A DNA stretch of 31,445 bases from contig JAMCRB010000001.1 in the NCBI GenBank assembly GCA_023380435.1, positions 1 through 31,445 of the forward strand. Direction: 5' to 3'. The notes beneath the pieces are model-generated. The model saw nothing but the letters and a program-made list of their open reading frames with translations, searched no databases and was not told the origin of the DNA. This document shows, in pieces, positions 16,620-17,275 of this stretch (positions are counted from its first letter, which is position 1; each line of letters opens with the position of its first letter). Source of the DNA: Candidatus Parvarchaeota archaeon (lineage in GTDB: Archaea; Nanobdellota; Nanobdellia; Parvarchaeales; Parvarchaeaceae). The translations under genes and the position numbers were made by a program.

Positions 16620-16656
16620 TATATCTTTTTTTTGCTTAAATACTTTAAAAAAGAGA

Positions 16657-16937
16657 ATGCGGTGTTGTATAGCCCGTTTTTTGTGATGCTTCCGCCTTTA
16701 GAAGGCTTCACAATCGCATCTTGCAACATTCGACTAAGCGCCGGAATACCGGTTTGCACGCCGCAGGTTTGCCGTTTCATCCCCTATTCCGCCTGTCTGT
16801 TTAACTTCATACATTGACGGGGTTGGGGTTCGTTTCTGATCAAGAGCCTACACTTTTAATGTACTGCATTACTGCAGTGCGGTTTTTGCCGTGAACGGAC
16901 TTCCTCCTTTTGTGGTGTGTTGCATGCAACACCGCAT
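16657..16937 (-). ncRNA. rnpB: RNase P RNA
   Basis: On the minus strand: P1 AUGCGGUGUUG/CAACACCGCAU, CR-I GAGGAAGUCCGUU pairing with CR-V AAAAAACGGGCUAUA (P4), CR-II AGAAAC, CR-III GAUGAAACGGC, GUGCAA, GCUUAGUCGAAUG, P2 UGCAAC/GUUGCA. Confidence 0.95.
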
Positions 16938-16957: not shown

Positions 16958-16966
16958 CTTTAATAC
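16958..16966. promoter_or_regulatory. candidate shared TATA box for divergent rnpB and SWIM gene
   Basis: CTTTAATA is centred in the 50-nt gap between 16937 and 16988. Confidence 0.5.
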
Positions 16967-16987
16967 TTTATTGGACGATTATATAAA

Positions 16988-17275
16988 ATGAAAATAGAGC
17001 TTATCAGTGATGATATCTTGAAAAAAGAATCGAATATTTACATTAAAGGCATAAAGCTTGTCAATAAAGTCAGGCTTGACTATGCTACAGATAAACATTC
17101 TTCGTTTCTAGTAGACCATGATGGCAAGATACATAATGTAATGTACTTCAGTGAGAAGAATGATATGAAAAGATGGCAGTGTGACTGCAAATGGTACACG
17201 CTACATGATAAGATATGCTCGCATATAATAGCCGTAAACCTGGCGCTAAGAGACAAGAAGATTGTGGGAGTATAG
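16988..17275 (+). CDS. SWIM zinc-finger protein
   Basis: WQCDCKWYTLHDKICSHIIAV matches CxC-x9-CxH. Confidence 0.85.
   Translation: MKIELISDDILKKESNIYIKGIKLVNKVRLDYATDKHSSFLVDHDGKIHNVMYFSEKNDMKRWQCDCKWYTLHDKICSHIIAVNLALRDKKIVGV

Follow-up and report, generated by a model that had tools for sequence, protein, structure and literature searches.

The question raised by this locus is whether a compact RNA that combines features of different archaeal ribonuclease P (RNase P) RNA types is a working enzyme component and, if so, whether it represents a new kind. The locus lies in a 31,445-nt stretch of DNA (the window) from Candidatus Parvarchaeota archaeon (assembly GCA_023380435.1, contig JAMCRB010000001.1, positions 1 to 31,445; class Nanobdellia and family Parvarchaeaceae in the GTDB lineage), where an original prediction, folded by hand from the letters alone, had placed an RNase P RNA of hybrid architecture at 16657-16937. 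We consider it very likely (probability of roughly 0.88) that this single-copy gene of a genome-reduced DPANN archaeon encodes the functional RNA subunit of a ribonucleoprotein RNase P, an RNA that works with five proteins and is built on a reduced, lineage-typical architecture with a P19 helix.

A cmscan search with the Rfam model RF00373 gave a match on the minus strand of the window from 16935 to 16659 (277 nt, 107.5 bits, E value = 2e-29; gathering score = 84 bits), spanning model positions 1 to 288 and complete. Three weaker matches at this locus, from other members of the clan, were discarded. The RNase P RNA at 16657-16937 is therefore borne out, with each predicted end correct to within 2 nt. 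The complete gene (16659-16935, minus strand; window position = 16936 minus RNA position) is the only RF00373 match in its own genome (G000; 465 kb in 53 contigs), and such matches were found in 51 of 61 relatives.

We aligned the RNA with 32 homologues from the genus and family (33 sequences) and curated the secondary structure by hand, including the P4 pseudoknot; RNAalifold mis-paired the P15 region and cannot draw P2 and P4 together, and the curated structure was used instead. It places 96.6% of 2224 cells in standard pairs, compared with 83.7% for column shuffles and 32 to 50% when partners were slid by 1 to 3 columns, and 50 of its 75 pairs show changes on both sides. Compensatory changes occur at every pair of P2, P7, P8, P9, and the basal P19 helix. 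All helices drawn in the original prediction were recovered, and covariation among homologues supports the structure.

The catalytic core is intact, comprising P1 to P5, the P4 pseudoknot, conserved regions CR-I, CR-IV, and CR-V, and an A-rich J5/15 (all features of the RNA are on the minus strand of the window). P1 (GCGGUGUUG/CAACACCGC, 9 bp, RNA 1-9/269-277, at 16927-16935 with 16659-16667) is 99.6% paired and has 6 compensatory pairs, P2 (UGCAAC/GUUGCA, 6 bp, RNA 12-17/209-214, at 16919-16924 with 16722-16727) has 6 of 6, and P4 (AGUCCGUU/AACGGGCU, 8 bp, RNA 35-42/258-265, at 16894-16901 with 16671-16678), the catalytic pseudoknot that pairs CR-I with CR-V, is 100% paired, with 2 compensatory pairs. 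P5 is CACG/CGUG, and J19/4 is ACAAAA. P3 is vestigial (CC-ACAAAA-GG, 2 bp, RNA 21-30, at 16906-16915), with its two C-G pairs invariant in the 33 sequences. The length of P3 (alignment columns 21-45) varies within a single genus, being 2 bp in most members, whereas nine have 8 bp at the same site. A near-complete deletion of P3 (CC-GU-CGG) is seen in genus g2 of the family.

The specificity domain follows the type A plan, with P7 to P12 including P8, interrupted P10/P11, and CR-II/CR-III. P7 (CCGCA/UGCGG) is compensatory at every pair, as are the P8 hairpin (CUGCA-GUAA-UGCAG at 16864-16877, 5 of 5 pairs, 99.4% paired) and the P9 hairpin (UACA/UGUA at 16849-16863, 4 of 4 pairs). P10 (GG/CC, 2 bp) and P11 (UUG/CAA, 3 bp) are interrupted by an asymmetric internal loop. 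CR-II (CAGAAACGA), P12 (RNA 108-155), and CR-III (AUGAAACG) occupy 16773-16838, with invariant columns that align to the Rfam consensus GAuGAUgc...gcuGAgg. P12 carries a conserved AUGA...GA element resembling a kink-turn (K-turn); the strict K-turn scan described below matched 22 of 34 P12s, the P12 element being of a known nonconsensus type that was identified via the Rfam consensus alignment. In total, GGAGGAAGUCC, CAGAAACGA, AUGAAACG, GCUUAGUCGAAU, and ACAAAA..CGGGCU show little or no variation in the family alignment, and the P4 pseudoknot is present along with all of CR-I to CR-V.

These observations bear on a first alternative, in which the RNA is a decaying relic and tRNA 5' ends come from a protein-only enzyme (HARP or another) or are leaderless as in Nanoarchaeum equitans. 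A tiny genome with reduced recognition elements might invite such a view, but the compensatory changes across the 33-sequence alignment show purifying selection on the structure, and all universally conserved regions are intact in the window RNA. The protein inventory, considered below, bears on the same alternative.

The most conspicuous reduction concerns the region that follows J5/15. J5/15 (CAAA) and the closed P15 hairpin (RNA 184-195) together occupy 16741-16756, as placed by the Rfam alignment and the homologues, and J5/15 is separated by only 12 nt (CCGG-UAUU-CCGG) from J15/2 (CGCUUAGUCGAAU, CR-IV, at 16728-16740), the latter being nearly invariant and matching the model consensus. In the Rfam alignment, 4 nt stand in for 35 model positions of P15-P17, and L15, P16, P17, and P6 are absent from the window RNA in both this alignment and the curated structure. 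The predicted absence of P16, P17, and P6 is thus confirmed, with P15 reduced to a closed 4-bp hairpin. Its pairing is kept in CUGG/CCAG variants within the family alignment, and the module measures 12 to 15 nt in 34 of 34 family members. By analogy with type M RNAs, the apparatus that pairs with the 3' RCCA of the substrate (L15/P16/P17/P6) would have been deleted, with a 4-bp capped P15 in its place. In the 465-kb assembly ARAGORN found only 14 tRNA genes, of which two have odd coordinates or introns, and a 3' CCA was encoded in none of the 12 complete genes (0/12); the loss of the RCCA-pairing loop is consistent with tRNA genes that encode no CCA.

This arrangement is typical of the lineage and the class and is not specific to the genome of the window. 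We sampled 150 genomes of the class, 129 of which had an RF00373 match, and retrieved 98 RNAs from families other than that of the window. P15 was classified by requiring self-complementary module ends, plus one manual correction (G074). A closed P15 of 9 to 18 nt was found in 79 of the 86 classifiable RNAs, an intermediate module of 26 to 28 nt in two (G065 and G090), and a long module of P15-P17 size in five (G037, G056, G049, G064, and G141). Two further groups stood out in this sample. RNAs of 254 to 263 nt in families f12 (G105 and G063) and f29 (G099, G117, G157, and G085), at loci L131, L133, L132, L135, L126, and L147, seem by eye, in a noisy fold, to have one hairpin replacing P8 and P9, and they may be fully type-M-like RNAs within DPANN (i.e., no P8 and a closed P15). 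The RNAs of family f22 (G075, G110, G116, G121, G132, and G147) are about 231 to 239 nt long, score 61 to 91 bits, and have J5/15 and J15/2 motifs that could not be anchored; these may be further reduced forms.

A second departure is an addition. The Rfam alignment contains a 33-nt insertion between the 3' strand of P2 and CR-V, and we identify the inserted helix as P19 from its place between P2 (3' strand) and J19/4. P19 (RNA 216-251, 36 nt, at 16685-16720) has a basal helix GAUGC/GCAUC (compensatory at 5 of 5 pairs), a K-turn-type internal loop, and a distal helix GCCU/AGGC (2 of 4). The interval from P2 to CR-V is 42 to 46 nt in 33 of 34 family members and 21 nt in the remaining one (G036, genus g3), and a P19-sized insert is found in 75 of the 82 RNAs of other class families in which this interval could be measured.

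The P19 internal loop has the sequence signature of a canonical K-turn. The loop and its helices read 5' GAUGC-GA-U[UGU]GA-A-GCCU ... AGGC-G-GA-A-GCAUC 3', and the candidate K-turn (16690-16713) is formed by U[UGU]GA-A on the 5' side (16707-16713) and G-GA-A on the 3' side (16690-16693). All family sequences with P19 (32/32) contain both GA dinucleotides; among these, the -1b/-1n pair beside the 3-nt bulge is C-G in 19 and U-A in 12, and most have A.A, A.G, or A.C at 3b.3n. Covariation is seen in both the C and the NC helix. A strict geometric K-turn scan matched 30 of the 32 family P19s (0.7 expected from shuffles) and 8 of 78 P19s in other families (f2, f10, f20, and f39; 1.1 expected), and the P19 of family f9 fits a K-turn by eye. 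The K-turns known from archaeal RNase P RNAs are one in P12, shared by types A and M, and one in P16-P17, shared by types A and T (PMC4245976, PMC13462272), and the searchable literature that mentions P19, K-turn, L7Ae, and RNase P together does not place a K-turn in P19. The P19 K-turn is probably an L7Ae site in the catalytic domain, the domain in which type A RNAs carry their second K-turn within the P16-P17 that is deleted here.

Could P19 instead be the missing module in a new place, so that P16/P17/L15 was displaced and not lost, P19 acts on the substrate 3' end, and the RNA is functionally of type A? It is long (36 nt) and conserved, its internal loop has conserved purines, and three of the five class RNAs with a long P15-P17 module lack P19. 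Against this, the element is located downstream of the P2 3' strand, which is the defining position of P19, and not between the P15 strands; it has no conserved GGU, and its loop signature is that of a K-turn and not of L15. P6-type complementarity to J5/7 was not apparent, the tRNA genes offer no CCA that could be bound, and G056 and G141 carry a long P15 module together with P19. We therefore regard displacement as very improbable and retain the reading of a true deletion combined with a genuine P19.

The protein subunits complete the picture. All five archaeal subunits (Pop5, Rpp30, Rpp21, Rpp29, and L7Ae) are encoded in the genome of the window, and HARP (PF08745) had no match in this genome or in 36 other family genomes. 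The first two were hard to find: the Pfam hidden Markov models for Pop5 (PF01900) and Rpp30 gave almost no matches in the family, with the Pop5 of this genome below detection. Two weak full-length Pop5 matches led to a gene of 102 to 109 aa adjoining the proteasome alpha subunit gene, directly upstream of psmA-SBDS-Rrp4 (i.e., in the exosome/proteasome superoperon position). A two-sequence profile (A2) finds again the canonical PF01900 loci in five other families, and a 13-sequence family profile (A3) matches Pyrococcus furiosus Pop5 (2av5) over its full length with an E value of 7e-7. The Pop5 of the genome of the window has 108 aa (contig C10, 6441-6758, minus strand; locus L070, 2436-2759), and the gene is present in 35 of the 36 other family genomes.

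Rpp30 (166 aa; contig C21, 2522-3004, minus strand; locus L173, 717-1214), present in 34 of the 36, had no PF01876 match at an E value of ≤1 in this genome, and one genus member reached 20.8 bits. A protein search tied it to canonical PF01876 loci in G048, G056, G058, and G044. A search of PDB sequences with the Rpp30-like family profile found nothing, and homology was settled by fold comparison. The AF2 model has a pLDDT of 92.5, and the top seven Foldseek matches are all archaeal Rpp30. VIA-align superposed 157 residues on Pyrococcus horikoshii Rpp30 (1v77, chain residues 8-208) with a Z score of 17.7 and a root mean square deviation of 2.4 Å; across the Pho, Tko, and Mja proteins, Z ranged from 17.7 to 15.3 and the deviation from 2.4 to 2.7 Å over 157 to 160 residues, and the next fold class had a Z of 10.5 or less. 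As modeled, then, the 166-aa protein is Rpp30 with an Rpp30-type TIM-barrel-like fold, and the structural alignment shows a barrel that is compacted and not truncated. Other candidates, proteins of ~575 aa matching PF01876 positions 3-93, were rejected as probably unrelated, sharing no more than the N-terminal portion of the profile.

The remaining subunits were found with Pfam. Rpp21 (96 aa, contig C36; PF04032, 50.5 bits) is present in 36 of the 36 other family genomes, and Rpp29 (about 69 aa; contig C51, 4560-4832, minus strand; locus L175, 561-833) matches PF01868 with 33.2 bits over model positions 24-80 only and is present in 34 of them. The Rpp29 gene is flanked by small open reading frames (ORFs) resembling ribosomal protein genes, which would be the usual archaeal context. 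L7Ae is a 120-aa ORF on contig C23 (PF01248, 86.8 bits in the search of this genome). For comparison, Pop5, Rpp30, and Rpp29 have 134, 232, and 95 aa in Methanocaldococcus jannaschii and 98, 180, and 84 aa in Pyrobaculum aerophilum (PMC13462272). The tiny P3 and the missing L15 loop had been taken to suggest altered protein dependence, which holds in the weak sense that Pop5, Rpp30, and Rpp29 are much shortened but not in any stronger one, as all five subunits are encoded and HARP was not found. Since all five are encoded, the RNA would work in a full five-protein ribonucleoprotein with miniaturized catalytic-domain proteins.

Parvarchaeota was not among the phyla credited with all five subunits in an earlier inventory based on Pfam and BLAST (PMC4919917), and shrinkage of the subunits below Pfam detection may explain those recorded as "missing" in earlier surveys. 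Annotation pipelines probably leave the Pop5 and Rpp30 of this family as hypothetical proteins, which inventories would score as absent. Two other genomes of the class attracted attention in the same searches. G046, a single 0.5-Mb contig that is 98% complete, has no match for RF00373, Pop5, Rpp30, Rpp21, or Rpp29, as expected if the organism, like Nanoarchaeum equitans, has no RNase P. In contrast, G052 (0.5 Mb, 98% complete) has a good RNA (130.7 bits), but Pfam detects no Pop5, Rpp21, or Rpp29 in it and just a weak Rpp30-like stretch with internal stops.

For the relic alternative, the near-blindness of Pfam to Pop5 and Rpp30 in the family and the existence in the class of a genome such as G046, which has neither the RNA nor any of the four specific proteins, are points in its favor. 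Once divergent orthologues are sought, however, all five proteins are present and HARP is without a match in all 37 family genomes, and together with the selection on the RNA structure this makes a relic barely credible. A functional RNA subunit thus remains our reading.

As to what kind of RNA this is, the original prediction held that it fits none of types A, M, and T cleanly. With type A it shares P8 and interrupted P10/P11 but not L15/P16/P17/P6. Type M is defined by the absence of P8 and of L15/P16/P17/P6 and by elongated, uninterrupted P10/P11 (PMC1874661); the window RNA has the closed P15 and lacks L15/P16/P17/P6, but it has neither lost P8 nor gained uninterrupted P10/P11. Type T does not apply, as P7-P12 and CR-II/CR-III are present and Rpp21 scores 50.5 bits in the same genome. 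However, Chan, Brown, and Lowe (2012) described type M variants that retain P8 in Archaeoglobus and Ferroglobus (PMC3579882), and the window RNA has the structural features of this variant; the lineages are unrelated, and common descent is not implied. The claim stands in that a type-A-like specificity domain is combined with a type-M-like catalytic domain, but a form of this description has been known since 2012 and is the norm in the class, and the suggested novelty falls away because a described subtype fits. "Hybrid" is an accurate description, but not of a new kind of RNase P RNA. A 2026 PNAS survey of 298 archaeal RNAs found that P6/P16/P17 were deleted independently in many lineages, that P19 occurs in various archaeal clades, is inferred for the last universal common ancestor, and was lost sporadically, and that P3 and P2 were lost in Nanopusillaceae (PMC12974513); the present lineage is not named in that survey or its supplement. 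A 2026 paper in NAR lists types A, M, and T only (PMC13462272).

Comparison with known systems places the RNA more precisely. The type M variant of Archaeoglobus profundus, A. veneficus, and Ferroglobus placidus (PMC3579882) likewise keeps P8, has a short closed P15, is missing L15/P16/P17/P6, and needs the archaeal protein set. The window RNA comes from an unrelated DPANN lineage, so the likeness is convergent, and it differs in its type-A-like interrupted P10/P11, its 2-bp P3, and its 36-nt P19 with a K-turn-type loop. The type M RNA of M. jannaschii (6K0A/6K0B; PMC6565675) has the same P1-P5, short P15 without the RCCA site, A-rich J5/15, CR-II/CR-III T-loops, and five proteins; unlike the window RNA, it has no P8 or P19 and has P12.1/P12.2 extensions, longer proteins, and a dimeric holoenzyme. 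Type A RNAs (Pyrococcus, Methanothermobacter, and the bulk of RF00373) share P8, P9, interrupted P10/P11, the P12 K-turn region, and the conserved regions. They also have L15/P16/P17/P6 and a second K-turn in P16-P17 (PMC4245976), whereas in the window RNA these are deleted and a K-turn-type motif is found in P19.

Two more distant systems are instructive. Eukaryotic nuclear RNase P RNAs likewise have no P15-P17/P6, keep P8, and have P19 between P2 and P4 (PMC6565675, PMC8509007), and their holoenzyme is a monomer; in these, an elaborate P3 is bound by Pop6/Pop7 and Pop1 replaces the J5/15 adenine anchor, whereas the window RNA has almost no P3 left, retains J5/15, and can draw only on the five archaeal proteins. 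Type T (Thermoproteaceae) likewise has miniaturized Pop5/Rpp30/Rpp29 and a K-turn in the catalytic domain (PMC13462272). It has retained L15/P16/P17/P6 but lacks Rpp21 and most of the specificity domain, the reverse of the system described here.

How such an RNA would work can be outlined by analogy. In the cryo-electron microscopy structure from M. jannaschii, CR-II/CR-III form the T-loop anchor for the tRNA elbow (PMC6565675), and the tRNA would be measured between this anchor and the J5/15 adenine anchor, as in that holoenzyme. P19 would stack on P2, judging from other RNase P structures. In M. jannaschii, an artificial P19 between P2 and P4 turned the dimeric holoenzyme monomeric, with reduced activity, and the eukaryotic enzymes, which have P19, are monomers (PMC6565675). 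A natural P19 at the P2/P4 position would prevent the RNA-RNA-bridged dimer seen in M. jannaschii, and for this reason a monomeric enzyme is predicted.

Combining these elements, we tentatively propose, at slightly worse than even odds, that P19 has acquired or retained a canonical K-turn both in this family and in five or more others of the class, and that this K-turn would recruit L7Ae to the catalytic domain and replace the scaffolding provided by the P16-P17 K-turn in types A and T. Together with the steric block of P19 on an M. jannaschii-type dimer and with miniaturized Pop5, Rpp30, and Rpp29, this would yield a monomeric, eukaryote-like, minimal holoenzyme. Several points weigh against parts of the overall interpretation. 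The genome is 76% complete, and the P15 and P19 calls across the class come from motif anchors and not from alignment to the model, with 11 RNAs unclassified. In the strict scan, just 8 of the 78 P19s from other families of the class carry the K-turn, so it is not a general requirement. L7Ae binding to P19 is predicted from a sequence pattern, and the monomer prediction would transfer the behavior of one engineered construct from a distant species.

The 5' end of the RNA raises a separate question. As originally noted, it contains a perfect 16-nt palindrome (GUGUUGCAUGCAACAC, RNA 4-19, at 16917-16932) across the P1 and P2 5' strands, and this was suggested to compete with P1/P2. The palindrome could be a functional switch, in which a hairpin competes with P1/P2, or an RNA-RNA dimerization element. 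The full 16-nt form is common only to the genome of the window and its nearest relative (G020), but palindromes of 10 to 14 nt occur in most genus members in four versions (UUG/CAA, UCG/CGA, CCG/CGG, and CUG/CAG), half-lengths have a median of 5 in the family and 2 in other class families, and the alternative hairpin has seven cells with double changes compared with 2.7 in shuffles. Against a function, the alternative hairpin pairs 72.9% of cells across the family, versus 96.6% for the canonical fold; double changes occur in 2 of its 6 pairs, which is not above shuffles, and these counts are inflated by related sequences. The palindrome is broken in G013, G005, and G019 and in the other genera of the family, and the full-length minimum free energy fold retains P1 and shows no 5' hairpin. 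The palindrome itself is thus real, while competition with P1/P2 is unlikely; a transient cotranscriptional 5' hairpin is possible.

A T-rich tract (UUCUCUUUUUU, 16643-16658, minus strand) directly 3' of the RNA is a likely terminator, giving a U-run after the RNA 3' end, and an A/T-rich element (AAAGTATTAAAG, 16959-16970, minus strand) about 25 to 35 nt upstream of the mature 5' end appears TATA-like. The neighboring genes are unrelated to RNase P and encode a small SWIM-finger ORF, a hemerythrin-domain protein, DUF981, and a KaiC-like ATPase. The SWIM-finger ORF (95 aa; PF04434, E value = 7e-6; 16988-17275, plus strand) is divergent and lies just upstream of the RNA gene.

Overall, the locus amounts to a routine gene call, the "hybrid" being the standard form in a very large and mostly uncultured archaeal class. 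The A/M/T scheme, in use in 2026, has no place for what is seemingly the commonest DPANN form, one with P8, a closed P15, and P19. The additions to knowledge are modest, namely, miniature Pop5 and Rpp30 proteins invisible to Pfam and a conserved K-turn signature in P19, and publications cover the rest in outline. For the family, Pfam-based inventories under-report Pop5 and Rpp30, which have shrunk to 108 and 166 aa with their folds kept. The P19 K-turn signature offers a hypothesis for how L7Ae might support a catalytic domain without P16-P17, and it may also provide a natural test of whether archaeal RNase P requires a dimer.

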